Assembly: GCA_903851045.1 (NCBI GenBank)
Contig: CAINNF010000007.1
Location: 11,289-75,288, forward strand
Length of the DNA: 64,000 nucleotides
Source of the DNA: Candidatus Adlerbacteria bacterium
GTDB lineage: Bacteria > Patescibacteriota > Minisyncoccia > Phycocordibacterales > SBAW01
Reading direction: 5' to 3'
A model generated the notes under the pieces. That model had not been told where the DNA came from, searched no databases, and saw only the letters and a list, made by a program, of their open reading frames with translations. How positions within the stretch are numbered: the first letter of the stretch is position 1; the number at the start of each line of letters is the position of its first letter. Below, piece by piece: positions 3,281-64,000 of this stretch. Made by a program: the position numbers and the translations under genes.

Positions 3281-3292
3281 AGTAGGAGGAGT

Positions 3293-3389
3293 GGGAACAA
3301 AAGTAGCTCTGCAAAAGTCCTCGGGTCTCCCGTCCAGGCTAGAGGCCAGCCAAGCGGGCCAGACTATTTGCATAGCTACTTTTGTTCCC
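3293..3389. repeat. Palindromic repeat element copy 1 (conserved 55-bp core 3313-3370 inside a 23-bp inverted-repeat stem), intergenic between the helicase and ksgA
   Basis: gggaacaaaagtagctctgcaaa ... tttgcatagctacttttgttccc inverted repeat flanks the core aaagtcctcgggtctcccgtccaggctagaggccagccaagcgggccagactattt. The same core recurs at 34832-34888 and, reversed, at 36425-36482. Confidence 0.8.
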
Positions 3390-3397
3390 ACTCCCGT

Positions 3398-5087: not shown

Positions 5088-5090
5088 GTC

Positions 5091-8018
5091 ATGAATAAAA
5101 AGATCATTATCGTGGTGCTGGTCGGCATAGTGATCGCTGCGATCATTGCCCTCATGTGGTGGTGGTTCTTTAATCGACCGAACAACGCACCCACACCGAC
5201 TGGCAACTTTGGTACTGCACAGGACCGGAACGGAACCAGCACCGGAAGCGGCCTGACCAATATAGGCTCACCGACCATTAGTAAACCTACCAATGCAGCG
5301 AACAAGATACCCAAAGGTACCTACCTCATTAAATCGCTTCAAGGAAACGTGCTTGGTTCGTACGTGGTCGACACGAACGCGGACGGCTCTTTTAGTTTTA
5401 CTCCCACGAACGGATCGAACCCCCTCACGGCGGGTGACTATACTCTGACAGTCAACGGGACGACCATGGGAAACTTTACTCTAGCACCGACCGGCTATCA
5501 GTATGCCTTCGCTCTTACCCCCTATACCGGACTTTCGAACGGCACCTATGTCTTGAAAACGCTCCAGGGCAGCACCACCGGCTCCTTTATCACGACGACC
5601 AACCCGGACGGGAGCGTGACCTTCACACCGACGGGGGGTTCGGGACCGCTCACGGCGGGGGACTATGTTATTGGGAATGACACGTACGCTCTCTCTTCCA
5701 ACAGCAATGGGACGTTCAATGTGAATCCGTACGCCGGGATCCCAGATGGCAAATATAACTTAGGAACAGGCACCTATGTCGCAACGACCAACCCGGACGG
5801 GAGCGTGACCTTCACACCGACGGGGGGTTCGGGACCGCTCACGGCGGGGGACTATGTTATTGGGAATGACACGTACGCTCTCTCTTCCAACGGCAATGGG
5901 ACGTTCAATGTGAATCCGTACAACGGAACATCCGATACGAATACCTACGCTAGCGCCGACGGTGGATACTGGCTGTCTATCCCATCGATTGATACTTCGA
6001 CAAACGCCGGATACAACGCGACCGTATATACCACAACCGGCGCCAGCACTACTGGCGTCAGCATCCCGGGGTATGACGCAACGGGCTATGGCTACGGCAG
6101 TACGACTATAGGAAGCGTCGGTATTGGGGGGGGTATCTCGTTCAAAACCGCTTCGGGCACTATTTTTAGCAGTGATAATCCGTTCAATAGTGGCACGATA
6201 CCGAGTATTGGTTCTTCAGGGAACCCGAACGGTAAGGGGCTCGGGTTGGAAGGTGCCCTTATCGGCGCGCTCGCGACCGGCGTCGTCGCCTGCGTCCTCC
6301 CAGCACTAGCAAAGACGATCGGCGGGTCATTTGCTCTTGCGATCACGGGTAAATCAATTTCAACCGCGGGCGATACTTATGCTATAGGCGGCGCAGTGAA
6401 AGCTGAGGCTGCCGCGAAGGCTGGGGATTATTGGGAGGTGGGGGGCGTCCCGGTCGGCGGGGCAGCACCAACAACCGGAGAGGCAGCCGCAGGCACGGCA
6501 AACTCAGCAGCAGGCACGGCAACAGCTAATTTGGGCGACACCATAACCGGAACAGGACAAACGATCGCCGAGAACCTCGGACTTTCCATACAACTCTCAG
6601 ACCTCATAACAAACGATGTACTTAACTGCTTCGCACGCACGGTCGCACATGCCGCACTGGAGCAGATCGCGCGCAGCACTGTTGCCTGGATCAACTCCGG
6701 CTTCAAGGGGTCACCGTCGTTCGTGTCGAATTACCAGCAGTTCTTCACCAATGTCGCCGATGCCGCCGCCGGGCAATTCCTTCAAAGCAGTGCGCTGTCG
6801 TTCCTTTGTAGCCCCTTCTCGCTACAGGTCAAGATCGCCGTCGCCCAAAGCTACGCCAGGACTACCGGGCAGCAGTGTACGTTGACCAGGGTGGTGGGTA
6901 ATATAAACAACTTCATGAACGGTAACTTCGCCGCTGGGGGGTGGCCGGGGTTCCTGTCGTTCACCACACAACCAACGAACAACCCGTACGGGGCCTTTGC
7001 CGTAGGTACGGTCGGTATTCATACGGCGGCCGCAAACGCCGTCGATCAACACAAATTCGACCTGGGTCTGAGCGGTGGCTTCTTGTCCATCACTCAAGCA
7101 CAAAACTGTCAGAACATAGCGGGGGGCACCGCTAAACCACCGCCAGACGTTGCTCCCGGTAAAGGCGTACAAACAGTGACAACCAAAGACAATAATGGAA
7201 ATGTGACTGGTTCGCAATACCAGGTATGCGACATGAAGAACGTCACCCCTGGTACTGCTATAGCACAATCGCTTAACCAAACACTTGGTATTAATACCCA
7301 GTCACTGGAAATGGCGAAGTACTTCGACGAGATCATAACCGCTCTTGTCGCGCAACTCATGCAAAACATCCAGTCTCATGGTTTGGCGAATATGAGCGGA
7401 GGTGGTTCCGATGGTTCTGGGTATTATGGTGGCTATGTGACCGCCTCAAGCACCAACACGTCCGGCATGATCCAACAGAGCGTCCTGCAAAATATCGCTC
7501 CACTACTGCAGTCGGCACAGGACGTCATCACGTACGACACCCAAAACATCAACAACATCAATGCGACCTTGGCGAAGGCATCCGCACTCCAAAGTTGCTG
7601 GTCAACGCTCGCAAGCGCCGCCACCTCGACCACGATCCAAACACAGGCACAACATAACGCAGCAGCCATCACCCCGTACATCACCGACCTCAACAATCGC
7701 CTGAGCGTATACCAGACCGGCATCACACAAGCGAATTCGAGCGTCGCTTCTATACAAAGCGCGCAAACACAGGCCCAATCGACGACCGATACCGCAACGC
7801 TCGAGAACATCCTCAACAGTGTCGTGAAGAACACCCAAAACCAAACGTTCGTGCAGGACACCAACGTTGTGAACGCTCAAGAGGACCAGATCAACTTAAG
7901 CGCCGCACTTGATGAGTACAATCAGATCATTTCGACCCAGATGCAGGCATGCGCATCGTCTACCACCACATTCCCGCCGCCCGTCATGGTCCCAACCCCG
8001 ATCACGGTCGGGGGTTGA
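5091..8018 (+). CDS. Large (975 aa) surface/secreted protein with N-terminal TM anchor, T/G/N-rich beta-rich repeats, a glycine-rich hydrophobic segment and a Q/T-rich coiled C-terminus; possible adhesin or pilus-associated protein
   Basis: MNKKIIIVVLVGIVIAAIIALMWWWF anchor; internal perfect tandem duplication (TTNPDGSVTFTPTGGSGPLTAGDYVIGNDTYALSSN.NGTFNVNPY twice); no recognisable catalytic motif. Confidence 0.6.
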   Translation: MNKKIIIVVLVGIVIAAIIALMWWWFFNRPNNAPTPTGNFGTAQDRNGTSTGSGLTNIGSPTISKPTNAANKIPKGTYLIKSLQGNVLGSYVVDTNADGSFSFTPTNGSNPLTAGDYTLTVNGTTMGNFTLAPTGYQYAFALTPYTGLSNGTYVLKTLQGSTTGSFITTTNPDGSVTFTPTGGSGPLTAGDYVIGNDTYALSSNSNGTFNVNPYAGIPDGKYNLGTGTYVATTNPDGSVTFTPTGGSGPLTAGDYVIGNDTYALSSNGNGTFNVNPYNGTSDTNTYASADGGYWLSIPSIDTSTNAGYNATVYTTTGASTTGVSIPGYDATGYGYGSTTIGSVGIGGGISFKTASGTIFSSDNPFNSGTIPSIGSSGNPNGKGLGLEGALIGALATGVVACVLPALAKTIGGSFALAITGKSISTAGDTYAIGGAVKAEAAAKAGDYWEVGGVPVGGAAPTTGEAAAGTANSAAGTATANLGDTITGTGQTIAENLGLSIQLSDLITNDVLNCFARTVAHAALEQIARSTVAWINSGFKGSPSFVSNYQQFFTNVADAAAGQFLQSSALSFLCSPFSLQVKIAVAQSYARTTGQQCTLTRVVGNINNFMNGNFAAGGWPGFLSFTTQPTNNPYGAFAVGTVGIHTAAANAVDQHKFDLGLSGGFLSITQAQNCQNIAGGTAKPPPDVAPGKGVQTVTTKDNNGNVTGSQYQVCDMKNVTPGTAIAQSLNQTLGINTQSLEMAKYFDEIITALVAQLMQNIQSHGLANMSGGGSDGSGYYGGYVTASSTNTSGMIQQSVLQNIAPLLQSAQDVITYDTQNINNINATLAKASALQSCWSTLASAATSTTIQTQAQHNAAAITPYITDLNNRLSVYQTGITQANSSVASIQSAQTQAQSTTDTATLENILNSVVKNTQNQTFVQDTNVVNAQEDQINLSAALDEYNQIISTQMQACASSTTTFPPPVMVPTPITVGG
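5595..5934 (+). repeat. In-frame tandem direct repeat (2 x about 150 bp, period 189 bp, one mismatch) inside the 975-aa surface protein gene
   Basis: acgaccaacccggacgggagcgtgaccttcacaccgacggggggttcgggaccgctcacggcgggggactatgttattgggaatgacacgtacgctctctcttccaac(a/g)gcaatgggacgttcaatgtgaatccgtac occurs at 5595 and again at 5784. Confidence 0.85.
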
Positions 8019-8032
8019 GGAACGTTATAATC

Positions 8033-11000
8033 ATGTACAAATCCCTACTACATTCGAAAATCCTCCAACAAGCGACAAAGGTCGCTATTGGTGTTGTGTT
8101 GGCTGCAACCTTCATATCACCACTCGGAGGATTGTTGCCGGTCGCTCACGCACAAAAACCCGCGCCACTTCCTGCAGGCACCGACACAGGCGACACCGGG
8201 GGAGCCGCGAAAGATGCTACAACCGGTGCTGGCGCCACTGATACGGGCGGCTGGTCGAATCCTAGCAGCGGATCTGATCCTAGCAGCGGATCGGCCCTTA
8301 GCGCCTTCGATTCATGTACTAACTCGAAAACACTGAGCATCTGTCTTTCGAACATCATATACGCCCTCTTCACGTTCCCCATGAGCATGTTCACCTACAT
8401 AACCAGCTTCGTCTTCGATATCGGCGTCCAGGTGACCCTGAATAGCGTCACCTACTCCCAAGACTTCATAACCGTCGGGTGGACCACTGTGCGCGACATC
8501 GCCAACATGGCGTTCATATTCATGCTGATATACCTGGCGATCATCATTGTCACCCGGGCCGACACAGCGAACACCATGAAGATGCTCGCGTCGATCATCA
8601 TCGTCGCACTACTCATCAATTTCAGCTTCTTTATCTCCCGACTGGCGATAGATGGGGGGAATCTCTTGGCGATACAGTTCTATAACGCCATCAATGTACA
8701 GCCGCTCGCGACGACCGCCTCACAAACCGACGCCTCTACCGCGACCAGTGTCGCGGGAGCAATCACGCCCGCGGGCCTCGCCAGCACAAAGGATCTTACC
8801 TATAACATCATGCAGCTTATCGGCGTACAGACGCTTCTCGGTTCAGGATCTTTTGCCTTGGCTTTCCAAAAACAAAACAATTTCGTCGTTAATCTTGCCA
8901 CCTTTTCGTTCATATACATCATCGTCGCTATCATATTGGCGATCTTGGCGTTCATGTTCCTTGCGACGGGGATCAAGTTCTTGCTGCGCTCCGTCATGCT
9001 GTGGCTACTTATCATGGCGTCGCCGCTCGCGTTCGTAGCGGCAGCACTCCCCGACAGCAAGGGCGGCAAGGACCTTTTCAAAAAATGGTACACCAACCTG
9101 TTCGAATACGCGTTCTTCCCGGCGGTCTTTCTGTTCTTATACCTGATCGTCAACATGTTCGCGGCGGGACTGGGCCAGACTAACAATAGCAAAGGTGGGC
9201 TGCTGAACTCAGCGTTTGGTAGTTTAACTCAAACCGCTAGTGGTGTGAGCGTGAGCCAAACAATGCTTGCATTAGGCGAAGTGATTGCCAGCATCTCTAT
9301 CCGCCTTGGACTCCTCGTACTCTTCCTCGGACTCGCCGTGAAGCTCGCGGACGATACCATGAAGGCGGGTGGGGGAACGTTCCAAAAGATAAACGGCTGG
9401 GCGGCGAACAAGGTGAGTAATACTGCTGGCATGTACGGCAGAAATACGTTTGGACGTGCGGGGTATCGGTTCGCCAACAGCAACATAGGCAAGCGTTGGG
9501 CGTCGCACGACATGGTAGGACGAACACTCTACCGGGGCGCAGATAAACTTGGGCGCTCGACCTATGACGTGCGGGGTGTGACCGCCTTTAGCAAAGCTGC
9601 GGACGCGGCCGGGGCTCGTGTTGGTGGACCAGATAAAAAGAACTTTGGTAGTGTTGTTAAGGAGAAAGTCGATCAAAAGGTGGCGTATGCTAACAGTCTG
9701 AAACCGAATGAGGCTCAGATGGAGCGTCTGTATACACAAGAATTGGAAAAAGCTGACAAAAAAGATGCCATAGCAGCCTACAAGAAGTGGCAAGAAGAGG
9801 AGGAGAAGTATAAGAATAAGCCAGGGAGCGATGATAAGGAAGTGAAGCGTGCGAAGAGCAAATATGATGCCGAGATCAAGAAATTGGAAAGTGGTGTGAA
9901 AAAAGAAGTGAAGGCGTCGGTCCAAGACAGACTCGACAGATATGCGGACACTATCGAGACGAGAAGGATCGGCAACATAGGAGGTATCTTAAGTTCGGGT
10001 CTCCCCGGCTTCATCGGAGCCGAAGATAGGGTTGCTGCAGCAAAGATTCGGGGTCGTAGCACAGATGCTAAATCACGCTTAGAAGATGCGGTGGAGACGG
10101 CTGCAAAAGATGCTACGGTTACTGGTAGCACATCCACTGGCGAAGGAACTGGTGGGACAACACCCCCCGCGACCCCACCAACTACCGCAAGACCGCCTAC
10201 TTCACCAGGAGGACAGCCACCGGCGTTCGTCCCACCGAACTACCCACCTGCGTTTATACCACCAGGTGTTCGATCACCGAAAGCAGCACCTGTGCCCATT
10301 AAACCGCTACCTCAACCACCAGCACCCAAAAACCCTGGAGGCTCAAGCGGGGGAGGGGGCGGAACACCGACAGGGGGAGGGGGCGGTCAACAACAAGAGG
10401 CGGCCGCGCAATCCGGCGGAGCGACATCCACCAATAGACGGTCGATCCCTCTTGCCGCGAACAACAACACCTCTCCTGCAGCAGCACCTGCTGTGACTAA
10501 TCAATCGATAGGGAACCCTGCCTCGTGGACGCATGATGCCGGATCCACAACGCCAGTGACGAGTGCTGCGAATCCTTCGATTGTGATGACGACGACAAGC
10601 CCAACGGTCATCACACAGTCCACCAACCCTGCTGCCCAAACACACCTCAATGAGCTGCACAATGATCTCGTCACACATCCAAACACCGCCGGAGCTCACG
10701 TCGGGATCTCCGCCGATAGTTCGGTCCAGATCAAAAAAGTAAACGACGAGATACTAAGAGACCATGTTACCGGAGTAGAGCAACGTGTGTTAGAAAATGA
10801 CGTGGAAGCTGCGAAGACGAACAAGGAGGTGTTGGAGCGACAGGTCGAGGAGATAAAGAATGTTGGTCAAGCGGTCGAACGAGTCAACGAGACGACCCAG
10901 GGACTCACCACCGCACAACGTGCGGGTACTAAAGAGATTAAAAGCTCTTTGGGCGATATACATCAAGCGCTTCGATCGGGGGGACGAATATCGGATGTCA

Positions 11001-41341: not shown

Positions 41342-41562
41342 AGTGTGATATTACCAGATTTTGGTGATATACTGGCCGCGTGCGCGAGAAACAGCGTACC
41401 AAAACTGAATATTCAAGCAAGTAGCCTAAACCATCCTACGGGGTGGCATGGCGAAAGCGAGAGAAGTCGTATAAGGCACAGAGAACCCTCACGGGTTGCC
41501 TTATACGCCGTACCGGGAAACTGGTACGAGGAGCCTCGGCTCCTACCGTGGGGGCTTTTTGT
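41342..41562 (+). ncRNA. GC-rich structured leader / candidate cis-regulatory RNA upstream of the HhH-motif gene
   Basis: Extended -10 (tggtgatatact) at about 41365, then nested perfect stems (cgtataaggca...tgccttatacg; ggagcctcggctcc) and a gggggcttttt terminator-like end immediately before the ATG at 41563. Overlapping ORFs are short and on mixed strands. Confidence 0.3.
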
Positions 41563-48350: not shown

Positions 48351-51158
48351 ATGCAGACAGGTATAGAGGCGGGGAGGGCGACCGAGAGTGCGCGACAGGA
48401 GTTGGAGAATCTTCGTCGACGGGCCGCTCAGCTGGAGGCCTCGCTTGCACAGGGGGCTGCTCCCACTGCCCCTACGAGTCCTGCCGCCCACGTTGAGCGG
48501 TCTCAGGAGGCCGCAACACGCGCGGTCGGGGAGCAGTGGCAACAGGCGGTCCAAAAGCCATCACCCGCCGAAGCTCCACGTGTCGCGTCGCACCCAGACG
48601 CCATCACCCTACAACTGACTCCGGAGGAACATGACGAGCGTATGGGTGAGTTCATCTATGTACTCCAAGAGAGTGGTGTGGTGAAGGCGATAGAGGCAGC
48701 CGAGGCGACTGGCAACCCGCACCTCATCGACGACTTCCACCGGGTACTCGTTGAGTGGGTGCGCGAAGGTCTGCCCGCAAAAGGTGCCGACCGGGAACCC
48801 TACAAGGTGCCGCTCTCGCTGGTGCTCTATGAGGTGACGCTGCCGCAAGCGGGGTCCGATAAGGAAAAGTCGTCCGACCCGACCCGAGAGCTGCGCGAAT
48901 TCATATCGCTTATGGAGCAGTTCTACCGCGGGATGCTCCAAATGGACGCCAAACATGGCGAGTACTTCTCGTTCGAGATAGCCAACCCGGCTGGTGCCGC
49001 GCACACGAGCGTCTACATGGCGATACCACGCACCCGCAAGGCGATGTTCGAGAAGCAGCTCATGTCCCTCTACCCATCGGCTCGTCTCAAAGAGCTGCAC
49101 GATGACTACAATGCGTTCGCGAGCGGTTCGCAGGTGGTCGCCGCGAGCGCGAACCAGGTCGAGCAACACATCTACTCGTTGCGGACGTTCGACGTGTTCC
49201 CGAACGACCCGCTCGACTCGCTATTGAACGCATTTTCAAAATTGGACGAGACTGGCGAAGGTGCGGCCATACAGTTCGTCGTCTCACCCTACGACAAAGG
49301 GCTTTCGAAGCGGTATCGTACCGCGCTGCAAAGCATACATGCCGGTATCGAACTTCGGCAGGCGACCAAGTTGCCGATGGGTATGAAGCGCGTGTTCCAC
49401 GATATATACACCGTCTTCAACGTGCCCAAGAAAGAGGATGAGGATAAACGACTGCGACCGGATGACCCACGCATCAAGAACATCGAGAACAAGCTGGCGA
49501 GTCCGATACTGCTCGTCGACATTCGGACGGTCGCCTCGGCCGCGACCGCATCGAGAGCAAGGGAGATACTCGAGGACGTCAAAGCATCGTTCCAGCAGTT
49601 CACGGATACCGCGGGCAACCGACTGCTGTTCAAGGAGGTGCCGAGCCGAAAGATCGGTTCGTTCGCACACACATTCTCGTATCGTATGCTGAACGAACGC
49701 AGCGCCATGCCGCTCTCGGCGATGGAGCTCGCGACTCTCGCACACCTGCCGCGACCCGAGGCACGGGAGTTCGCGCCGGATATCCGTCAAGACAAGAGCC
49801 AGGCGGCCGCAGCCCCGATCGGGCTTCCGAAACAAGGTGTGCTCCTAGGTGTCAATCGTTTTCGCAACAACGAAACGAAGGTGTTCATCCAACCCGAGGA
49901 TCGTATGCGACACTTGTACCTTATCGGACAGACCGGTACCGGTAAGTCGGTGTTGCTCAAAAATATCGTCATTCAAGATATCAAGAGTGGGGCAGGGGTG
50001 TGCTTCCTCGACCCGCACGGCTCGGACGTGCTCGATATCCTCTCCGCCATCCCGCCGGAGCGTATGGACGATGTCATCTACCTTGACCCGGGTTCTATGG
50101 ATCGGCCGATGGGGCTCAATATGCTCGAGTATGACCCTGCGCATCCGGAGCAAAAGACGCTCGTGGTGGACGAACTCTTCGGCATCTTCAAAAAACTCTT
50201 CGGTGCGGTGCCAGAGAGTATGGGGCCTGCGTTCGAACAATACTTCCGTAACTCGGCACTTTTGGTCATGGAGGACCCCGCATCAGGGAACACTTTGTTG
50301 GATATCTCGCGCATATTCGCCGACGAAGACTTCCGCCAACGCAAGCTCGCGGCGTGTAAGAATCCGATCGTCAAGCAGTTTTGGGAGGGTATCGCCATGA
50401 AGACGACCGGCGAGCAGGGGCTCGAGAACTATGGCCCGTACGTCACCAACAAGTTCGACGTCTTCACGACGAACGACTTCGTGCGCCCGATGATCTCTCA
50501 GCAAAAGTCCGCGTTCAACTTTCGCGACCTTATGGACAACCGCAAGATCCTGCTCGTGAACCTGGCCAAAGGGCGTATCGGCGACATCAATGCCAACCTG
50601 CTCGGTCTCATCATCGTTGGGAAGTTCCTCATCGCCGCGCTGTCGCGGGTCGACTCCTTCGGTCAAGAGTTAGCACCGTTCTATCTCCACATCGATGAGT
50701 TCCAAAACTTCGCTACACCATCCATCTCGACCATCCTTTCGGAGGCTCGCAAATATAAATTGTCGCTCACTATCGCGCACCAATTCATCGCCCAGCTAAC
50801 GGATGAGATCAAAGACGCGGTGTTCGGTAACGTCGGTTCGATGTGCGCATTCCGTGTCGGCGTGGACGACAGTGAATTCTTGGAGAAGCAGTTCGCTCCC
50901 GTGTTCTCCGCTGCCGACCTGATGCGCGTCGACAACTACAATGCGCACCTCAAGTTGCTCATCAGCGGCAAGCCGTCGCAACCGTTCAATATCGAGACGC
51001 TACCGTTCCACGGCGGTACCAAAGAGTATGTGCAGCAGCTCCAAGCCCTCTCGGCACTGCGCTACGGCCGCCCGCGAGCCGAAGTCGAAGCCGAAATGGC
51101 CGCCGCCTTCGCCGGTGTCGTCCAAGACCCGGCCACTTTGATGACGGGGGGAATGTAA
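48351..51158 (+). CDS. VirD4/TraG/TraD-family (TrwB-type) P-loop ATPase with about 430-aa N-terminal domain of unknown function and no obvious TM anchor; putative coupling-protein-like ATPase
   Basis: Walker A YLIGQTGTGKSVLL; FLDPHGSDVLDILSAIP (the DPKGD-like motif); ILLVNLAKGRIGD; Walker B-like FYLHIDEFQNFAT; TIAHQFIAQL. Confidence 0.55.
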   Translation: MQTGIEAGRATESARQELENLRRRAAQLEASLAQGAAPTAPTSPAAHVERSQEAATRAVGEQWQQAVQKPSPAEAPRVASHPDAITLQLTPEEHDERMGEFIYVLQESGVVKAIEAAEATGNPHLIDDFHRVLVEWVREGLPAKGADREPYKVPLSLVLYEVTLPQAGSDKEKSSDPTRELREFISLMEQFYRGMLQMDAKHGEYFSFEIANPAGAAHTSVYMAIPRTRKAMFEKQLMSLYPSARLKELHDDYNAFASGSQVVAASANQVEQHIYSLRTFDVFPNDPLDSLLNAFSKLDETGEGAAIQFVVSPYDKGLSKRYRTALQSIHAGIELRQATKLPMGMKRVFHDIYTVFNVPKKEDEDKRLRPDDPRIKNIENKLASPILLVDIRTVASAATASRAREILEDVKASFQQFTDTAGNRLLFKEVPSRKIGSFAHTFSYRMLNERSAMPLSAMELATLAHLPRPEAREFAPDIRQDKSQAAAAPIGLPKQGVLLGVNRFRNNETKVFIQPEDRMRHLYLIGQTGTGKSVLLKNIVIQDIKSGAGVCFLDPHGSDVLDILSAIPPERMDDVIYLDPGSMDRPMGLNMLEYDPAHPEQKTLVVDELFGIFKKLFGAVPESMGPAFEQYFRNSALLVMEDPASGNTLLDISRIFADEDFRQRKLAACKNPIVKQFWEGIAMKTTGEQGLENYGPYVTNKFDVFTTNDFVRPMISQQKSAFNFRDLMDNRKILLVNLAKGRIGDINANLLGLIIVGKFLIAALSRVDSFGQELAPFYLHIDEFQNFATPSISTILSEARKYKLSLTIAHQFIAQLTDEIKDAVFGNVGSMCAFRVGVDDSEFLEKQFAPVFSAADLMRVDNYNAHLKLLISGKPSQPFNIETLPFHGGTKEYVQQLQALSALRYGRPRAEVEAEMAAAFAGVVQDPATLMTGGM

Positions 51159-51327
51159 AACATATAAGCGCTGTGTAAAGAAAAAGGGAGCCCGGAGGCT
51201 CCCTTAAGGAAAAACGATCTTATATCACGCGACGAAATATGGCGGAGCATATGCATTGTAGTACAATAGGAGTGTACGAAGTCTGTTTTTTACGTACATT
51301 TACTACCCATTAATTTCTACAAATTAT

Positions 51328-55314: not shown

Positions 55315-55328
55315 CGAACAAATGTTCG
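55315..55328 (+). promoter_or_regulatory. LexA operator (Cheo-box type, CGAACAAATGTTCG)
   Basis: Perfect CGAAC-N4-GTTCG palindrome 15 bp upstream of the lexA start codon. Confidence 0.75.
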
Positions 55329-55342
55329 ACTATACTAGGGAC

Positions 55343-55906
55343 ATGTCAGCCTATCGAGCGAAGATCCTGCACTTCTTTCGTGCACGCAAGCGGATGCCGA
55401 ACATATCGGAGATCATGACGCTGTGCGGCTTTTCGTCGCGCTCATCTGCCTTCTACGTGGTCACCAAGTTGGTTAAGGAGGGTGTGGTCGCCAAGGACAA
55501 GGCGGGCAAGCTCATCCCCACGAGCGCACTCCACGCTGTGCGCAAGGTCGGCCGTGTACGCGCAGGCTTCGCATCGCCAGCAGAGGAAGAGTTGGCGGAC
55601 ACTATCACCGTGGGCGAGTATCTCATCCGCGACAAGCAGGCGAGCTTTCTCTTGGAGGTCGAGGGCGACTCGATGGTCGACGCGGGCATCCATGAGGGCG
55701 ACATGGTGATATTCGAGCGCGGCAGCGACTACCGGCCGGGCGACATCGTCATCGCGCTCACCGAAGATGGCTACACGATCAAATATCTGCGGAAGCAGCA
55801 CGGGAAGTACTTCCTCGAAGCGGCGAACCCGAAGTACCCCAACATCCACCCAAAGGAAGGCCAGATCGTCGGTGTGGTGACGGGTACCTTTCGCAAGTAC
55901 AAATGA
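55343..55906 (+). CDS. lexA: LexA repressor
   Basis: N-terminal wHTH and C-terminal S24 peptidase (GDSMVDAGI ... KYL). I moved the start to the ATG after the operator, since the annotated ATG at 55322 lies inside the box. Confidence 0.85.
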   Translation: MSAYRAKILHFFRARKRMPNISEIMTLCGFSSRSSAFYVVTKLVKEGVVAKDKAGKLIPTSALHAVRKVGRVRAGFASPAEEELADTITVGEYLIRDKQASFLLEVEGDSMVDAGIHEGDMVIFERGSDYRPGDIVIALTEDGYTIKYLRKQHGKYFLEAANPKYPNIHPKEGQIVGVVTGTFRKYK

Positions 55907-55907
55907 T

Positions 55908-57218
55908 ATGCAACCCTTCTCTATCCGCTCCTACCCGCGCGCGATACTCCACTTCGACGGCGACTCCTTCTTCGCCTCGGTCGAACAGGCGATGAACCAC
56001 CGACTTCGCGGCAAGCCAGTCGTCACTGGTGGCGAGCGCGGCGCGGCCACGGCGCTCAGTATCGAGGCCAAGCGGCTCGGACTCACGCGCGGGATGCCGA
56101 TGAAGCAGATACGGGAGTTGTGCCCAGAGGTCATTGTCGTGAAGTCCGACTACACGGCCTACTCGATCTACGCGCGGCGGATGTACGCGATAGTGCGCCG
56201 CTACACGCCGATGGTCGAGGAGTACAGTATCGACGAATGCTTCGCCGACATCACGGGGCTACGCGGGATGTATCACCGCTCATATGCGCAGATAGGGGAG
56301 ATGATCAAGCGGGAGTTGGAGGAGAGCCTCGGCATCACCTTTGGTGTCGGGCTGGCGCCAAACAAAGTGGTCGCCAAGATCGCGTCGAAACATCGTAAGC
56401 CCGGCGGCTTCACCGCGATACCGGCCAAAGAGGTTCACACCTTCCTGCAAAATATGCCTATTGGCCAGGTGTGGGGGGTCGGCTACTCGATGCAGATGGC
56501 GCTCCACAAGCTCGGCGTCACCACCGCGCTCCAGTTCGCGACCAAGGACGAACAGTGGCTGCGCGCCAACAAGATAGCCAAGCCCTACCGCGAGATCTGG
56601 TGGGAGCTGCGCGGCGGCTTCGCCAAGGAGCTCTCGCTGACCCACAACGACGACATCGGCTCCATCATCAAAACGCGCACCTTCGCGCCGCCCACCCGAG
56701 AGCGCGCGTTCGTGCTCTCGCAACTCTCCAAGAACATCGAGAGCGCCTGCGCCAAGGCACGCGGGCACCACATGCGCCCGCGCGCCGTGAGCTTCTTCCT
56801 CAAAACTCAAGACTTCATCTATCGTACCTGCGAACTCGACCTCTCGGTCGCGACGAACGACCCCGCCGTCATCCTGCGCCTCGTCGAAGCCCACTTTGAC
56901 CGCGTCTTTGTCCCCAACATCCTCTACCGCACCACCGGCATCACCTTGCGCAACCTCGTCGAAGAGGGAGCCGCCACCCTCGACCTCTTCGGCGAAGCGC
57001 AGGTCGTCAACGAGCGTCAACCGATCCTCACCGCCGTGGATTCCCTTAACAAAAAGTACGGCAAAGAGACGGTCATCCTAGCCGCCAGCCTCAAAGCCGT
57101 GAACCACCTCGAACCCAACAAACAAAGAAACATGACCACTCGCACCTCAAAAGTTCATCTTCCCCTTGAGCAAAGAAAGAAAACAATAGACCTACCATAC
57201 CTTGGGCGGGTGCGGTGA
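55908..57218 (+). CDS. dinB: Y-family DNA polymerase (DinB/Pol IV-like)
   Basis: ILHFDGDSFFASVEQ, SIDECFADITGL, and little-finger domain; 436 aa; immediately downstream of lexA (SOS operon). Confidence 0.85.
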   Translation: MQPFSIRSYPRAILHFDGDSFFASVEQAMNHRLRGKPVVTGGERGAATALSIEAKRLGLTRGMPMKQIRELCPEVIVVKSDYTAYSIYARRMYAIVRRYTPMVEEYSIDECFADITGLRGMYHRSYAQIGEMIKRELEESLGITFGVGLAPNKVVAKIASKHRKPGGFTAIPAKEVHTFLQNMPIGQVWGVGYSMQMALHKLGVTTALQFATKDEQWLRANKIAKPYREIWWELRGGFAKELSLTHNDDIGSIIKTRTFAPPTRERAFVLSQLSKNIESACAKARGHHMRPRAVSFFLKTQDFIYRTCELDLSVATNDPAVILRLVEAHFDRVFVPNILYRTTGITLRNLVEEGAATLDLFGEAQVVNERQPILTAVDSLNKKYGKETVILAASLKAVNHLEPNKQRNMTTRTSKVHLPLEQRKKTIDLPYLGRVR

Positions 57219-57405
57219 GTATTGACGAACAGGCTATTTTGTGCGACCATGTGGGTATGGCTCATAAAAGTCACAGTATGTATACGAGTCGCACCAGCGC
57301 CCAGAAGTGGGGGTGCCTTTCTGCTATCGCAGTGGATGGCACAGCGCTCGTATATAGCCGTGGCTTTTGTATGAATTCCTAATTTTTCAAAAGAGTTTCT
57401 TAGAG

Positions 57406-60109: not shown

Positions 60110-61624
60110 CTAGGTTATGATTTGCGCCAGCCCCTCCGTGGCGACAAAGTCGAAGTCTTGCCGCCGTAGGTCCACGGCGAGCTCGCCATACTTCCGCACC
60201 AAATTGCCGAAGCGTTCCTGAAGGCGTTGCTTGAATTCATCCGGTCCCAAAACACCCAAAGCCTTCCCGACTTGCCCCGCAACTGTCCGGTTGCGAGTGC
60301 GCTGAAGGAACAGTGGGATGGTTTGCAGATAAATGCATGTCCACGGATTCCATCCAAAGTGCGGCCCCGGCGTCTTTGGTGGTAACTCGCCGCGTAGGAA
60401 AAGGAAAAGGTCGGCTGCCATAAAGTCCTCGAACGGCAGCACGGCGGCCAGGCCGCCGGTGGTATGGCGCGCTTTTAGGATATCCGCGCGGAGAGAGATC
60501 CTACCTTTTTTCTTGCTTTCATCGCCAAGCAACGGAAGGTGGCGCGAGGCGTAATCCCACGTTACCTCTCCGGCGCCTCCCCTCGCATTGCGCAGGTATG
60601 GCACCGGGATGGGCTCGTCGAGTATTCGAGCGAGCATGTCCCAGCGCTGTTCACGAATCATGAACGCCATGAGTGTGACGAATAGCTCGTGGCCGATGAA
60701 TCTGAAGTAATCATAATCACCCTCGCTTACAAGGCCGTTACGGAAGTCCTTCGACAATTCATAGTGTTCAAATATCTTTCCGAACCAGCGGTATGTATCG
60801 AGCGCGCAGTCGAGGTCGCCTATGACCGCAATGGTCTCGGCGATGCGCGAGAATCTGGCGACGGCTTCCTGCGTCTTTCCGATTGCGTCGACAAGCTCGT
60901 CCGCTGTTCCGCTGCTGCTGTGTTTCCTCGGCTGCAACGACACCAGTTCCTTCAGTATTTGGTCGAGATCGCGACGAAGCACGATGACTTTATTCGGACG
61001 TGCGTTCTCTATCGCTTCTACCGAAGGAATGGACGGCGCAGGATCTTCCGGGACTGCTTCAAGGGCAACGCGGAGGGCTTCCTCGAGCTGGTCTCTCAAC
61101 TTTTTTCTCTCCGCCGCGCGGTCTGTGACATTCGCCGGCATGTTGTATGGGAGTAAGCGGCGACCTCGTAGGTCGAAAGGCAAATCTGGGAAGTCGCCGA
61201 ATGCCGTATTAAAAACGGGAATGACTCGCTCATATCCGAGCGTCTTGACCGCATACCCAAGCTCAATGAGAACGTTCGGATTCGGCGTCGGGCGCTGCCC
61301 CTCGGCCTTAGTGGTGATGGTGACGTCAGCTACGAAAACGTTCGAGGCCGATATTTTGGCGAAAATCGTCGAGGCGATGTCAGGCGAACCAGGTACGTTT
61401 TGCGTATCGCGATCAAGGACCGGCTCGACGGCGACCGTATCGTCTGCGGCGATAGCGGCGACTGCTTCTTCGAGCGCTTTTTGGATGAACGAACGGTTGC
61501 CGCCGTTCGGCAGATCGGATTGCCATGAGTAGAAAACGATTCGTCGCATACGGATATAATGCGCCTCTAGATAGGATTTTGCAAAATCCAGGCTAAACGC
61601 GAAAAAAGGGGTATGCCTCAGCAT
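60110..61624 (-). CDS. TIR-like domain protein with about 330-aa C-terminal helical domain (candidate defense/NAD-processing protein)
   Basis: RRIVFYSWQSDLPNGGNRSFIQKALEEAVAAI ... LDRDTQNVPGSPDIASTIFAKISASNVFVADVT ... NVLIELGYAV ... RVIPVF follows the TIR fold pattern (betaA-alphaA, conserved Glu in the WxxE-type position). The start may be the internal Met at 61549. Confidence 0.5.
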   Translation of the reverse strand: MLRHTPFFAFSLDFAKSYLEAHYIRMRRIVFYSWQSDLPNGGNRSFIQKALEEAVAAIAADDTVAVEPVLDRDTQNVPGSPDIASTIFAKISASNVFVADVTITTKAEGQRPTPNPNVLIELGYAVKTLGYERVIPVFNTAFGDFPDLPFDLRGRRLLPYNMPANVTDRAAERKKLRDQLEEALRVALEAVPEDPAPSIPSVEAIENARPNKVIVLRRDLDQILKELVSLQPRKHSSSGTADELVDAIGKTQEAVARFSRIAETIAVIGDLDCALDTYRWFGKIFEHYELSKDFRNGLVSEGDYDYFRFIGHELFVTLMAFMIREQRWDMLARILDEPIPVPYLRNARGGAGEVTWDYASRHLPLLGDESKKKGRISLRADILKARHTTGGLAAVLPFEDFMAADLFLFLRGELPPKTPGPHFGWNPWTCIYLQTIPLFLQRTRNRTVAGQVGKALGVLGPDEFKQRLQERFGNLVRKYGELAVDLRRQDFDFVATEGLAQIIT

Positions 61625-61706
61625 ATCTCCGATACTTTTTTCTTCGGGCGGTATTTATTGTACAAAATTCGAACCTTTTTTGAAAGCAATCCCGACGAGG
61701 AAATCT

Positions 61707-61876
61707 GAAACAATGCGGACGAAGTTTTGCGGAAACAATTTTCTGGGGAAAGGATTCCGCAAAACTTCGGCTGATTCTTTTTTCCTGAATTTGGATGTCG
61801 CAAGCGGAGGAGGAGGGGTCTGGGGAGGAATCCTCCGCTTGCTCCTCTTTTTGTTTTGGCGAAATTCGGGCGGGCT
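61707..61876. repeat. Left copy of a long inverted repeat (about 170 bp, about 97% identical to the reverse complement of 63831-64000), with two internal perfect hairpins
   Basis: gaaacaatgcggacgaagttttgcggaaacaattttctggggaaaggattccgcaaaacttcggctgattc...gcaagcggaggaggaggggtctggggaggaatcctccgcttgc...ggcgaaattcgggcgggct. Hairpins are gaagttttgcggaa/ttccgcaaaacttc and gcaagcggagga/tcctccgcttgc. Confidence 0.85.
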
Positions 61877-61878
61877 AA

Positions 61879-62550
61879 CTATTTTAATACTCGATAAATT
61901 TCAGCAAGTAAAACATCAAGGTCGTTTGAAAAATCAACTTGATTGGAATTTGGCAAAACTTCTTTTTTTCTAATTTGTGTATGCAAATGCGAATCAGATA
62001 TTTTTCTTGACGAATTATCTAAATTTTTCATTGACTCCTTAAAACTTTTACTACCATGATTATTTGCAACTTCTGTAAAAGAAGTTTTGCCAAAGATTGG
62101 AGGAATATGGTCAGCAATAGCTCTAACGAGCATTGCTGTTGATAAAAAGTTTTCAAGCGAAAAAGCAGTATTTAATTCTTCGCAAAATCGGATAAGTTTT
62201 GTAATATCATAATTATCATTTTTAATTGTTTTCAGTTCCTTGATTCTATTTTGATTTACAAAGTTATAAGCTCCCGATTTTGCAATCTGCTTTTTCGGTT
62301 TTATGTTTTTGTAAAGCTCAATTACATATGAACGACGCTCGGCATAAGTACCCATTTTCTTCTTTTTCCAAAAACTATAAAACTCCCACAAATCAGAAAA
62401 ACTATTCGGATTTTTCTGATTTGTGTTTGAAAAAATATCATCAAGCTCACGAAATAACTTTTTATATTCGTCATTTGTGTCCTGAATTTTTGCTTGACCA
62501 GTAGCAACATCAGTCATTATTGATTTTATTTTTTCAATTAGTTCATTCAT
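61879..62550 (-). CDS. Hypothetical protein (223 aa, AT-rich cassette gene)
   Basis: Last gene of a four-gene minus-strand operon; its stop is 2 bp from the left inverted repeat. Confidence 0.45.
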   Translation of the reverse strand: MNELIEKIKSIMTDVATGQAKIQDTNDEYKKLFRELDDIFSNTNQKNPNSFSDLWEFYSFWKKKKMGTYAERRSYVIELYKNIKPKKQIAKSGAYNFVNQNRIKELKTIKNDNYDITKLIRFCEELNTAFSLENFLSTAMLVRAIADHIPPIFGKTSFTEVANNHGSKSFKESMKNLDNSSRKISDSHLHTQIRKKEVLPNSNQVDFSNDLDVLLAEIYRVLK

Positions 62551-62978
62551 AAATCTTCAAGGGGATAGACATCAAAAGCAACCTCCTCGTAAGGATGAAC
62601 ACTTTTAACCTTTTCTATTACCGAGCTTAAAATCTCTCGCGATAAAACAACCTCTATTCTTTCTTCTTCTACTGATTCATATTTCCCTGATTCACCAATA
62701 CTAGGGTTAGAGTTTTCGTTACCACGAAAACGACCTACTCCCCGAGTAGAAAAAGAACAAAAATCATAATTCCCAATTTTTCCTGCTCCTGCTTCACCAA
62801 GCACTTGGCGAACAATATCGCAGTGACTTAATGGAACAAACACAACAAGTTTTACATTCTTTGTATTCATAAATTTATTCCAAATCACTTTTTCCGATAT
62901 TACATACCGAGCAAAGTGTTTGAAGATTTTCCAAAACTGTTTCACCACCATTCGCCCATGCTTTAATGTGGTCAACAT
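62547..62978 (-). CDS. PII-like domain protein resembling the insert domain of NIF3/YqfO-family proteins
   Basis: KLVVFVPLSHCDIVRQVLGEAGAGKIGNYDFCSFSTRGVGRFRGNENSNPSIGESGKYESVEEERIEVV resembles the YqfO PII-like insert (KIVTFVP...AGAGQIGNY..CSF...G.GTF...ANPFIGE.G....VEE.R.E). Probable start at the internal Met at 62867. Confidence 0.4.
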   Translation of the reverse strand: MLTTLKHGRMVVKQFWKIFKHFARYVISEKVIWNKFMNTKNVKLVVFVPLSHCDIVRQVLGEAGAGKIGNYDFCSFSTRGVGRFRGNENSNPSIGESGKYESVEEERIEVVLSREILSSVIEKVKSVHPYEEVAFDVYPLEDL

Positions 62979-63543
62979 GAAGAATAATACTTGGGTCAGT
63001 TGCGGGCGCCCGTCCGCAATTTTTACATTTGAAATTATCTCGCCTCATAACAACAAAACGAATTCGCCAATTTATTGTTCTTGCTGTTTTATGTCTTGCA
63101 CTCGGCTCAACTTCTAAACTTTTAATAGCTTCCTCGGACGAGGCATTTTCTTCATTATTGATATAAGCGACAAACTTTTCCAAAGCATCACGCCAACCAC
63201 CAAAACGATTATCATATGTTCCTGCACTATATTTTGAAAGTGGTTTTTGTATTTCTTGGTAGCGTGGTTGTCGTCCAAGTTTTAGCCAGATTTCTTCAAT
63301 ATTCTTAAAAAGCTCCTCTTCAGAAATATTAAGAGGGCTTCTCGTGTTTTCTAAACCAGCCAATTCAAGCGCTTTGAACCAACCGCCAAAACGACGAGTT
63401 ATTGTGGTGGCGTGATAGGCTCCTCGCTCATTGTACTTATCAATCGTAGGGCTTTCTCCCAGATCAATAGCAACTCGCTTTATGTCAGCAATGAGCGTTT
63501 CATCAGGGGTATTACGATTGTAACTATCAAGCTCAAATTTCAT
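62875..63543 (-). CDS. HNH endonuclease with N-terminal tandem helical repeats (homing-endonuclease-like)
   Basis: C-terminal HNH motif RRDNFKCKNCGR...HVDHIKAWANGGETVLENLQTLCSVCN; two N-terminal repeats (GAYHATTITRRFGGWFKALELAG / SAGTYDNRFGGWRDALEKF). Confidence 0.75.
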   Translation of the reverse strand: MKFELDSYNRNTPDETLIADIKRVAIDLGESPTIDKYNERGAYHATTITRRFGGWFKALELAGLENTRSPLNISEEELFKNIEEIWLKLGRQPRYQEIQKPLSKYSAGTYDNRFGGWRDALEKFVAYINNEENASSEEAIKSLEVEPSARHKTARTINWRIRFVVMRRDNFKCKNCGRAPATDPSIILHVDHIKAWANGGETVLENLQTLCSVCNIGKSDLE

Positions 63544-63547
63544 AAAA

Positions 63548-63751
63548 TTATTTAATCAACTCCTCAATGTCTACACTGAGAGCCTTGGCGATTTTGCTCA
63601 CCACAAAAACCGAAGGTTTCTTGATGACACCTGTTTCGACCTTTGTAAGCGTTGTGTAGGGAACATCCGCTTTACGAGCAAAATCATCTTGGGATAGACC
63701 AAGTTTTTGTCGTAATTTCTTTATTTTTTGACCTAGTTGATTACTTTCCAT
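63548..63751 (-). CDS. XRE-family helix-turn-helix transcriptional regulator
   Basis: LGQKIKKLRQKLGLSQDDFARKADVPYTTLTKVETGVIKKPSVFVVSKIAKALSVDIEELI; 67 aa; first gene of the cassette operon. Confidence 0.75.
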   Translation of the reverse strand: MESNQLGQKIKKLRQKLGLSQDDFARKADVPYTTLTKVETGVIKKPSVFVVSKIAKALSVDIEELIK

Positions 63752-63792
63752 ATATTGATACCATAATATTGTTGCTTATTTCTACTTGCAGT

Positions 63793-63825
63793 ATTATAAT
63801 AACAAATATGAGAGTATTTTTCAAT
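63793..63825 (-). promoter_or_regulatory. Sigma70-like promoter for the XRE-HNH operon (minus strand TTGAAA - 17 nt - TATTAT)
   Basis: The reverse complement reads ttgaaaaatactctcatatttgttattataat immediately inside the right inverted repeat. Confidence 0.5.
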
Positions 63826-63830
63826 TTTTT

Positions 63831-64000
63831 AGCCCGCCCGAATTTCGCCAAAACAAAAAGAGGAGCAAGCGGAGGATTCCTCCCCAGACCCCTCCTCCTC
63901 CGCTTGCGACATCCGAATTCAGAAAAAATGAATCAGCCGAAGTTTTGCGGAATCCTTTCCCCAGAAAATTGTTTCCGCAAAACTTCGTCCGCATTGTTTC
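63831..64000. repeat. Right copy of the long inverted repeat (reaches the window end and may be longer)
   Basis: Reverse complement of 61707-61876 with about 5 differences; same two internal hairpins. Confidence 0.85.

Follow-up and report, generated by a model that had tools for sequence, protein, structure and literature searches.

Our analyses indicate that the long inverted repeats at the right-hand edge of the window (the whole 64,000-nt stretch of DNA analyzed here) probably enclose the cargo half of an integrative element that consists of two modules and is operated by a large serine recombinase (LSR), and we rate this element as an LSR integrative element of a new variety. With the window strand reversed, the locus runs from the 3' end of a tRNA-Ser(TGA) gene through a short core (CCGC) to arm a, the LSR gene, arm a', a second core, arm b, four cargo genes (encoding an XRE regulator, an HNH endonuclease, a PII-like protein and a 223-aa protein), arm b' and a last core, beyond which the host DNA carries a gene for a 504-aa TIR-like protein.

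A repeat search of the window detected two arms of 181 nt (61707-61887 and 63820-64000) that are 96% complementary and separated by 1932 nt, the right arm ending at 64000 because the window ends there. In longer contigs that cover this locus, each arm measures 240 nt (Table 1), with 98% identity between the arms in contig L001 and five differing positions in the window's own haplotype. Thus, of the near-perfect inverted repeat of about 170 bp described in the first-pass annotation, the near-perfect pairing holds and the length has to be revised. None of 100 shuffled windows reached the observed match count, and no further full copies of the repeat or its hairpins were found within the 64-kb window. 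The GC content of the cassette (0.29-0.41, vs. about 0.55 in the flank) agrees with its initial description as a low-GC segment. The repeat structure is reproduced by at least six independent assemblies (ENA, NCBI, and Logan), and two contigs of 133 and 170 kb traverse both arms, with independent assemblers and samples agreeing at 99.9%. The arms are also the break point of many contigs.

The first-pass annotation had proposed a rightward extension of the contig, and this revealed an LSR gene, a second pair of inverted repeats and a tRNA-Ser(TGA) gene past the window edge. In the 133-kb and 170-kb contigs, arm b adjoins arm a' and the recombinase gene, which encodes a 506-aa protein with Resolvase, Recombinase, and Zn_ribbon_recom domains (Pfam PF00239, PF07508, and PF13408); matches to CcrB and XisF in NCBIfam were weak, and in the PDB search the catalytic domain alone was matched. 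The second repeat pair, a/a' (120 nt, 99%), surrounds the LSR gene, and a' meets arm b with a 4-nt overlap. The 3' end of the tRNA gene abuts the start of arm a, which coincides with the final 40 codons of the LSR gene; the LSR frame has no stop codon in the element and continues into the tRNA. Within the 20-kb neighborhood, no gene for a tyrosine recombinase was detected, and no recombination directionality factor was recognized in the element.

Table 1. Features of the cargo module and its arms, in window coordinates.
Feature	Position	Strand	Evidence or remarks
Arm b' (distal inverted repeat, 240 nt)	61648..61887	.	L001 11657-11896 (= window 61887-61648); outer end is the putative right end of the element; contains the left repeat (IR-L) of the first-pass annotation
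Core GCGG and putative P-type recombinase half-site	61648..61675	+	GCGGTATTTATTGTACAAAATTCGAACC; T-loop mimic TTCGAAC 17-23 nt from core
Outward promoter-like site in outer b' block	61657..61684	-	TTCAAA-16-TACAAT, 9/12 matches; aimed at the 504-aa host gene
Hairpin 1, distal	61720..61769	.	Stem CGAAGTTTTGCGGAA / TTCCGCAAAACTTCG, 15 bp, 20-nt loop
Hairpin 2, distal	61800..61842	.	Stem GCAAGCGGAGGA / TCCTCCGCTTGC, 12 bp, 19-nt loop with CCCCAGA/TCTGGGG
223-aa protein, no recognized domain (cargo)	61879..62550	-	ORF; stop codon inside inner end of b'
107-aa PII/CutA-fold protein (cargo)	62547..62870	-	Stand-alone homolog of NIF3 insert domain; 2gx8, E 3.5e-37
HNH endonuclease with two HNH_repeat units (cargo)	62875..63543	-	Matches Type II restriction-enzyme HNH model, E 3.5e-8
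XRE-family regulator, first gene of the cargo module	63548..63751	-	HTH_3, E 5e-16; same position across related elements
Promoter-like site, XRE/cargo operon	63796..63824	-	TTGAAA-17-TATTAT, with TG; 10/12 consensus matches only
Arm b (proximal inverted repeat), cut at window end	63820..64000	.	L001 9485-9724; 59 nt more outside
Hairpin 2, proximal	63865..63907	.	Stem GCAAGCGGAGGA / TCCTCCGCTTGC, 12 bp, 19-nt loop
Hairpin 1, proximal	63938..63987	.	Stem CGAAGTTTTGCGGAA / TTCCGCAAAACTTCG, 15 bp, 20-nt loop

Domain and ORF evidence agree with the four minus-strand genes first annotated in the cassette, including the PII-like call, as a CutA/PII fold was recognized in the 107-aa protein together with a match to the NIF3 insert domain; family searches with the 223-aa protein gave no match. 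A promoter of its own had also been ascribed to the cassette, and a promoter-like site is present upstream of the XRE gene, its -35 hexamer overlapping the inner end of arm b. The outer block of b' contains another promoter-like site, with a mirror copy in arm b that faces the recombinase gene. We tentatively regard this site as an outward sigma70-like promoter, an assignment that fits its own subfamily; other subfamilies show little conservation of its -10 hexamer. The HNH, PII-like, and 223-aa genes were absent from all related elements and therefore represent replaceable cargo; for the HNH gene, no homolog occurs in the 80 related loci, which were drawn from species-representative genomes.

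The same architecture, from the tRNA-Ser gene through both repeat pairs to an XRE gene with cargo, recurs in about 45 species-representative genomes of CPR bacteria, in every case at a tRNA-Ser 3' end. A b-block, LSR gene, and tRNA-Ser gene occur in this order in 43 of the 80 related loci, and in 15 more the LSR and tRNA-Ser genes lie at a contig end. The insertion target, a tRNA-Ser 3' end beside the 3' end of the LSR gene, is present in at least 58 of the 80 (anticodons TGA, GGA, CGA, GCT, and ACT). All 15 contigs carrying the flanking gene also carry the element. The b arms of the related elements span 190-273 nt, are 95-100% identical within an element, and enclose 1.4-5 kb of cargo that is unrelated between elements and starts with the XRE gene, which adjoins arm b in most of them. 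The a arms in about 10 loci are just 74-92% alike, and homogenization is therefore not universal. Judged by sequence appearance, the cargo ranges over nucleases, restriction-modification genes, a D-Ala-D-Ala ligase-like gene, and membrane proteins. The type of arm, the type of XRE, and the cargo reassort independently of one another, and one element (L160) combines an identical XRE with different cargo. At another locus (L152), two modules that lack an LSR are chained through a shared core next to a tRNA, and a third (L151) is a cargo-only module. Database searches returned more than 7000 LSR relatives, the best 120 of which are all at least 78% identical and come from Saccharibacteria, Paceibacterota, Nomurabacteria, Uhrbacteria, and other lineages. 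LSRs sharing 96-97% identity are spread over more than one phylum-level lineage and more than one tRNA-Ser isoacceptor, from which we infer that the element is mobile.

The core CCGC/GCGG is found at the tRNA/a, a'/b, and b'/host junctions (20 loci), and a relative that targets tRNA-Ala has CCAC as its core; the half-site on the host side is not conserved. In serine integrases, the distal motif of an attP half-site lies about 5 bp further from the center than in attB, a spacing rule that reportedly comes from structural work on LI integrase. In 47 b arms, the distance from the core to the start of a T-loop-like hexamer is 17 nt, compared with 12 nt in 52 tRNA flanks, and in the tRNA-Ala-targeting relative (39% LSR identity) the motif starts at 18 and 13 nt, respectively, the same 5-nt shift. 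By this geometry, the outer tips of the arms are putative serine-integrase att half-sites, which bears out the early remark that the repeats are atypical for transposon terminal repeats and speaks against its suggestion of a hairpin-ended element. One arm of the cargo module would thus be the right end of the element and the other part of an internal, inverted attP copy, and the central a'-core-b junction is predicted to be the inverted copy of the attP expected from circularization. No empty attB was found in JGI metagenomes. A circular form was not recovered either, although assemblies cannot show its junction because it would have the same sequence as the internal one.

Based on these observations, we propose that the LSR integrates a circular form through recombination of attP (b'-core-a) with an attB at the 3' end of a tRNA-Ser gene. 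The circle would hold a second, inverted attP copy (a'-core-b) between the LSR and XRE genes. On integration, one copy would be divided between the two outer arms, a and b', with the second copy left intact, and each module would be bracketed by long inverted repeats for this reason. The intact internal site could then recombine again with another tRNA-Ser gene, and the cargo module would flip between its arms, most likely via homologous recombination within them.

Rarer isomers in other genomes suggest that the internal a'-core-b site does recombine. In three loci (L038, L063, and L072) the LSR module lies between two complete, convergent tRNA-Ser genes, in two others (L025 and L029) the tRNA is upstream of the LSR gene and arm b downstream, and there are tandem arrays with a-core-b junctions in common. 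Two equivalent attP copies would be expected to yield both integration isomers at similar frequency, yet one of them predominates by roughly 58 to 3, a point against the proposed model. Regarding the orientation of the cargo, the XRE gene is divergent from the LSR gene in 23 related elements and flipped in 3, and flipped cargo was identified in L003, L047, L097, L141, and perhaps L006, where the arm is chimeric and the contig ends short of the flank, so that flipping and gene conversion are inseparable. L003 is a 75-kb contig of the same locus in which the cargo is inverted and the outer-arm SNPs remain with the flank. Since the flank retains its markers at alignment columns 72 and 103, the crossover must be at least 37 nt inside the core, with column 103 as the firm bound; a placement in the hairpin-1 interval was discarded, since it rests on one hypervariable SNP (column 194). 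The flipped orientation in L003 and the unflipped one in the other contigs of the locus come from different samples, and the assembler may have mis-oriented the cargo of L003 if the two arms have the same sequence over more than k = 141 in that sample. The original view of a mobile, invertible cassette that depends on an outside function agrees with our reading.

Each arm carries two hairpins, as first annotated, and both are exact in the two arms of the window. Both sides of the stem have changed in 10 of the 15 pairs of hairpin 1 and in 9 of the 12 pairs of hairpin 2, with covariation scores of 0.46 and 0.54 compared with 0.15 and 0.11 in shuffles, none of 500 of which reached the observed value. 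The loops are near-invariant (TCTGGGGA), and the stem sequences are free to vary. Hence, it is the structure of the stems and not their sequence that is conserved, and the combination of near-invariant loops with free stems points to a structure-specific partner. The exact 19-mer loop of hairpin 2 occurs in more than 120 metagenome contigs and beside LSRs of only 26-87% identity, and in L015 it is flipped in both arms. In the outside-to-inside direction, the 12-bp stem of hairpin 2 is followed by a T-run (TCCTCTTTTTGTTTT), which is weak in other subfamilies; from inside to outside, the hairpins have no T-runs. An intrinsic terminator consists of a GC-rich stem, a loop of 3-8 nt, and a U-run, and a standard terminator scan called neither hairpin 1 nor hairpin 2, whose loops are 19-20 nt. 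It is nevertheless plausible that hairpin 2 acts as an inward-facing terminator. An Rfam search of the element matched no family in the arms, where only chance-level miRNA hits were obtained.

Two other roles for the hairpins were considered and rejected. For bridge-RNA-like guidance, a 9-nt match between the hairpin-2 loop and the tRNA-Ser D-loop is absent for the tRNA-Ser genes of other loci and is thus a coincidence, and the resemblance of the hairpin-2 stem to the tRNA-Ser acceptor stem of this genome does not hold at other loci either. For palindromic LSR or XRE binding sites, LSRs that are 94-97% identical, or XREs of the same type, are accompanied by differing stems.

Several other explanations for the repeats have to be weighed. 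The recombinase directly adjoins the repeat-flanked segment and both orientations of that segment occur, as in a phase-variation switch of the Hin/Gin/Cin type, where the recombinase would flip the cassette at sites in the repeats and switch the cargo, the recombinase, or the TIR-like gene. Moreover, the cargo promoter lies at one arm boundary and no T-run follows the hairpins outward, and flipping would therefore redirect read-out to the LSR or the 504-aa gene. We nonetheless consider such a switch unlikely, as the enzyme has the size and domains of an LSR and not those of a small invertase of about 190 aa, the L003 crossover is away from the LSR site, the orientation bias is strong, and the arms end integrative elements at tRNA-Ser genes in dozens of species, which a local switch leaves unexplained. 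Somewhat less likely still is an independent, non-autonomous cassette, captured and stacked in integron-like fashion beside the LSR, with arms recognized by structure (attC-like, as folded single strands or cruciforms). The covarying stems with invariant loops, the exact hairpin-2 loop beside divergent LSRs, its flipped form in L015, and the shuffled, chained, and cargo-only modules (L160, L152, and L151) would all suit this explanation; however, a tyrosine integrase or structure-specific recombinase is not conserved nearby, the module has its own promoter and regulator, unlike integron cassettes, and the hairpins could be simply terminators or RNA-stability elements. Furthermore, serine recombinases act on double-stranded sites.

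The first-pass annotation had suggested that the cassette was moved in trans or by its HNH nuclease. The external function is borne out by the LSR beyond the edge; the HNH protein as the driver is not, as its gene is missing from the relatives. This protein carries homing-endonuclease-associated repeats, but the repeat architecture, the XRE gene, and the LSR gene are conserved in related loci that lack an HNH homolog, which makes movement by a homing endonuclease of the cassette very improbable. We regard as refuted an assembly artefact (a contig end that is chimeric or folded back on itself) and a common dispersed repeat lying beside the cassette by coincidence, both of which had been raised at the outset. 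The right arm does reach the window end and contigs frequently break at the arms, but the 133-kb and 170-kb contigs cross both arms, the independent assemblies are concordant, the window holds no other copies, and the same paired architecture is present in more than 40 species.

The two-module LSR element, which remains our preferred reading, does not by itself account for arms of 120 and 240 nt or for the near-invariant hairpin loops; about 50 bp suffice for an LSR att site. For the long arms and the hairpins we infer additional roles: hairpin 2 with its T-run would insulate the cargo from incoming transcription, and gene conversion between arms would maintain their likeness. Two further, speculative reasons for the repeats were considered: incoming single-stranded DNA might prime itself by folding back, or the LSR mRNA might form a panhandle (a' in the 5' UTR paired with a at the 3' end). 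A broader possibility, which we put forward tentatively, is that CPR/Patescibacteria harbor a class of modular elements in which a tRNA-3'-end LSR with an internal inverted attP is combined with one or more hairpin-armed cassettes that can be acquired, chained, inverted, and swapped as whole units, a serine-recombinase analog of the integron platform whose internal attP may also drive rearrangements of the chromosome between tRNA-Ser genes. In CPR bacteria, whose genomes are tiny, gene exchange is little understood; with cargo that differs from genome to genome, the element would be a leading carrier of accessory genes in this group. An integrase element with an intact inverted attP is mechanistically unusual and predicts recombinase-driven inversions between tRNA-Ser genes, and these elements may be a natural source of serine integrases for which a single conserved attB half-site is enough.

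Our literature search found no description of the two-repeat LSR/tRNA-Ser architecture, although its coverage was incomplete and this is weak evidence of novelty. The element resembles known LSR elements (phiC31, Bxb1, and A118 integrases, TnpX of Tn4451, and CcrAB of SCCmec) in its three-domain LSR, in the short core that both ends share, in its site-specific target, in an attP-type half-site whose distal motif lies 5 bp farther out than in attB, and in having the recombinase gene at one end. In contrast to these, its target is a tRNA 3' end with a single conserved attB half-site, its LSR frame has no internal stop and runs into the tRNA, no directionality factor is recognized, and it keeps an internal inverted attP with 120 and 240 nt of flank, which places both modules in long inverted repeats. 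Serine invertases (Gin and the G segment of Mu, Cin and the C segment of P1, and Hin) likewise have a repeat-flanked segment beside a serine recombinase and found in both orientations, and the 0.6-kb repeats of P1 are a precedent for long repeats; here, however, the enzyme is large, the crossover is away from the recombinase core, the segment holds variable cargo with its own regulator rather than alternative gene ends, and the whole unit is integrative.

Tycheposons and other tRNA-targeting cargo islands are likewise small, occupy the 3' ends of tRNA genes, and vary greatly in their cargo (10.1101/2020.12.28.424599); unlike the present element, they mostly use tyrosine integrases and have neither paired inverted-repeat modules nor hairpins. 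With integron cassettes the cargo module shares variable content, chaining (L152), and imperfect palindromes at its boundaries whose stems covary without being conserved in sequence, although the loops are conserved in sequence; it lacks an IntI tyrosine integrase, contains several genes with their own promoter and XRE regulator, and has two inverted arms. Finally, the element differs from the yeast 2-micron plasmid (FLP, 599-bp inverted repeats) in having no replication function, in using a serine instead of a tyrosine recombinase, and in being seen integrated at a tRNA, its circle being only presumed; that circle would nonetheless share with the plasmid two long identical inverted repeats with recombinase sites that separate two unique segments, with the recombinase encoded in one of them.

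Our analysis showed that the repeat-flanked cassette at the right end of the window makes up one half of a conserved element, with its engine, a large serine recombinase (LSR), encoded just outside. The long inverted repeats around an AT-rich cassette reported in the first-pass annotation are real, measuring 181 nt (96% reverse-complementary) at the window end, 1932 nt apart. The same locus was retrieved from several independent assemblies via exact-protein look-ups, and two contigs (133 and 170 kb) run past the window edge that had truncated the right-hand repeat, revealing the LSR gene, a second inverted-repeat pair (a/a') and a tRNA-Ser gene. The window differs from the 133-kb contig (L001) at 4 positions over 3957 nt, and on this contig each arm of the cassette (b, proximal to the LSR, and b', distal) spans 240 nt in full, the two being 98% alike. 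Each arm carries exact copies of two hairpins, with a match count reached in 0/100 window shuffles, and no further full copies were found elsewhere in the 64 kb window. The enclosed DNA has a GC content of 0.29-0.41, vs ~0.55 outside.

The LSR is a 506 amino acid protein with Resolvase, Recombinase and Zn_ribbon_recom domains, encoded divergently from the XRE regulator. Arms a and a' (120 nt, 99% alike) enclose it: arm a is the final 120 nt of the LSR reading frame, and arm a' ends 22 nt upstream of the start codon and overlaps arm b by 4 nt. The outer end of arm a is also the 3' end of the tRNA-Ser(TGA) gene, and the LSR frame, which has no stop codon in the element, runs on into the antisense tRNA and stops there. 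Together, the two repeat pairs, the LSR and the abutting tRNA-Ser therefore give the layout tRNA-Ser / CCGC / a - LSR - a' · GCGG · b - cargo - b' · CCGC / host, in which the cargo order from arm b is XRE, HNH, PII-like and 223-aa ORF.

Features of the window, with related loci (L-numbers) named where coordinates are theirs
Feature	Position	Strand	Remarks
Arms within window	61707-61887; 63820-64000
Arm b' (left), full length	61648-61887		mapped from L001
Arm b (right)	63820-64000 plus 59 nt past base 64000		mapped from L001
Hairpin 1			stem CGAAGTTTTGCGGAA / TTCCGCAAAACTTCG, 15 bp, 20-nt loop
Hairpin 2			stem GCAAGCGGAGGA / TCCTCCGCTTGC, 12 bp, 19-nt loop
Inter-hairpin linker, differences from L001	61773-61787; 63920-63934
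XRE regulator		-	HTH_3, E 5e-16
HNH protein		-	222 aa; two HNH_repeat units and HNH domain
PII-like ORF	62547-62870	-	107 aa
223-aa ORF		-
18-bp perfect inverted repeat	61949-61966; 62077-62094		TTTGGCAAAACTTCTTTT; within 3' part of 223-aa gene
TTGAAA-17-TATTAT	inner edge of arm b, ahead of XRE		consensus match
TTCAAA-16-TACAAT	outer block of arms		outward-facing; consensus match
504-aa host-side gene	60110-61624	-
LexA-like S24 peptidase and Y-family polymerase (IMS) pair	~55320-57220	-	inferred from matching contig's gene tables
Large DUF8128/TraG-like gene	~50110-51160		inferred from matching contig's gene tables
LOOT RNA (Rfam RF03000)	41423-41544	+	65.7 bits vs gathering score 46.4
L015 arms	3994-4199; 5662-5867		hairpin-2 loop reverse-complemented in both; stems and hairpin 1 unchanged
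L106 repeat pair	676-874; 2527-2725		brackets recombinase gene (LSR 59% identical); hairpin-2 loop motif inside
L151 cargo-only module	5992-8081		8 nt from tRNA-Leu; arms begin at hairpin 1
L152 chained modules	73-8877		two, recombinase-less, repeat-bracketed, chained at 6-nt core beside antisense tRNA end
L170 relative	1-10348		LSR of 60% identity at tRNA-Asp, within nested inverted repeats of 247 and 753 nt

The 107-aa cargo protein shows a match to the insert domain found in NIF3-related proteins (2gx8, E 3.5e-37), and its predicted model (pLDDT 75.5) superposes on CutA and PII proteins; the earlier "PII-like" gene call is therefore correct. Its family comprises >2000 proteins, ~80% identical across CPR lineages and all annotated as hypothetical. 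The 18-bp repeat in the 223-aa gene, which differs from the hairpin-1 stem by 2 mismatches, may be a vestigial arm. On the host side, the 504-aa gene starts 23 nt from the end of the element and would directly follow the tRNA-Ser gene in an empty site. Its similarity to TIR effectors is weak: Pfam PF10137 falls slightly short of the cut-off, and the PADLOC hit to a TIR effector has E 1.6e-5. The promoter-like sites are consensus matches only; the outward copies face the LSR and the 504-aa gene, respectively, this latter gene starting 33 nt downstream of the site in arm b'. Past the right end of the window, L001 1-7700 holds a mobile/defence cluster with HsdR, a MerR-like HTH protein, two further large serine recombinases of 557 and 443 aa, ThsB-TIR together with a 230-aa partner, and tRNA-Arg; beyond these lie two housekeeping genes, RuvX and one for a tRNA-binding protein.

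LSR relatives in the database number >7000, the best 120 of which are 78-97% identical and belong to Patescibacteria where named. A scan of species-representative genomes yielded 80 loci, in which repeats were found by self-comparison, and both repeat pairs recur repeatedly among them. The a arms (~120 nt) are mostly 98-100% alike, and just 74-92% in ~10 loci; the b arms (190-273 nt, 95-100% alike) abut a' and enclose 1.4-5 kb. In at least 58 of the 80 loci the 3' end of the LSR is abutted by a convergent tRNA-Ser gene, five anticodons being used. The cargo is different in every genome, the sole constant gene being XRE at the LSR-proximal end, and homologues of the HNH, PII-like and 223-aa genes were found in none of the other loci of the scan. 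By sequence appearance rather than family models, cargo elsewhere includes an OLD-like ATPase with HNH, a methyltransferase with a nuclease, a D-Ala-D-Ala ligase-like gene, peptidases and membrane proteins. Wider relatives also target tRNA-Asp, and these, together with the cargo-only and chained variants, suggest that cargo modules behave as units.

The arms have the features of recombinase sites. Arm a always ends ...TTTGCGG, abutting the reverse complement of the tRNA sequence ...CTCCGC(CA), arm b always starts GCGGT.T....TTG.AC.AA.TTCGAA, and the a'/b overlap is never below the 4-nt core. The distance from the core to the start of a T-loop-like hexamer is 17 nt in 47 b arms vs 12 nt in 52 tRNA flanks, and the same 5-nt outward shift occurs in a tRNA-Ala relative (39% LSR identity, core CCAC). 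Structural studies of serine integrases place the distal zinc-ribbon motif of attP half-sites 5 bp outward of its position in attB half-sites. The spacing matches arm b as a putative P-type arm and the tRNA as a B-type arm; the host-side half-site showed no conservation among the loci compared. The two repeat pairs make the central a'·core·b junction exactly reverse-complementary to the b'·core·a junction expected from circularisation. In its simplest closed form the element would be a circle in which a 356-nt repeat occurs twice, in inverted orientation; it would integrate via this circle, splitting one of the two copies. Some less common arrangements fit an active internal site: in three loci (L038, L063 and L072) the LSR module lies between two complete convergent tRNA-Ser genes with different anticodons, each of them joined at the core to an a arm; L025 and L029 have the tRNA upstream of the LSR, with arm b and hairpins downstream; tandem elements share a·core·b junctions; and database LSR tails run into antisense tRNA, arm b or other DNA in similar proportions. 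One isomer is in strong excess, which this model does not account for.

In L003, a 75-kb contig of the same locus, the cargo cassette has the opposite orientation with respect to the 504-aa gene. In its aligned arms the two outer markers (columns 72 and 103) remain those of the flank, the inner part being that of the XRE-side arm. This places the exchange at least 37 nt inside the core and not at the LSR site. L006 has the same chimeric arm and stops short of the flank. In the wider family, 23 elements have XRE divergent from the LSR and 3 have it flipped. We read these patterns as cargo that probably flips now and then by homologous recombination between arms, with the caveat that a k = 141 assembler can mis-orient the segment if the arms in a sample are identical over more than k. 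The four positions at which the window and L001 differ are all confined to the inter-hairpin linker, suggesting that the arms undergo exchange or conversion. At one linker position, near-identical strains carry three different alleles (A, T, C).

The hairpin stems are wholly different among related elements, yet still paired (hairpin 1: AAGTTTTGCGGAA, GGCAGGGCGAA, GGTTTTGCGAA, CACCCCGCC; hairpin 2: GCAAGCGGAGGA, CCCGCCCGCA, CCCGCGCGGA), and the loops, both containing CCCCAGA, are almost invariant. By alignment counts, 10/15 pairs of hairpin 1 changed on both sides (covariation score 0.46, shuffled mean 0.15) and 9/12 of hairpin 2 (0.54, shuffled mean 0.11), with 0/500 shuffles reaching either score. 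The exact 19-nt hairpin-2 loop occurs in >120 metagenome contigs, often as two inverted copies separated by 1.8-7.8 kb and next to LSRs with 26-87% identity. That stems vary beside nearly identical LSR and XRE proteins argues against either protein reading them. A T-run follows hairpin 2 in the outside-to-inside direction only, which would make the insulating terminator proposed in the first-pass annotation a reasonable role; a terminator scan called neither hairpin, and loops of 19-20 nt are atypical for terminators.

Our literature search found no description of a serine-integrase tRNA island whose modules are bracketed by repeats and which contains an inverted attP internally. In its workings the element resembles the serine-integrase islands of tRNA genes, to which these two features are added.
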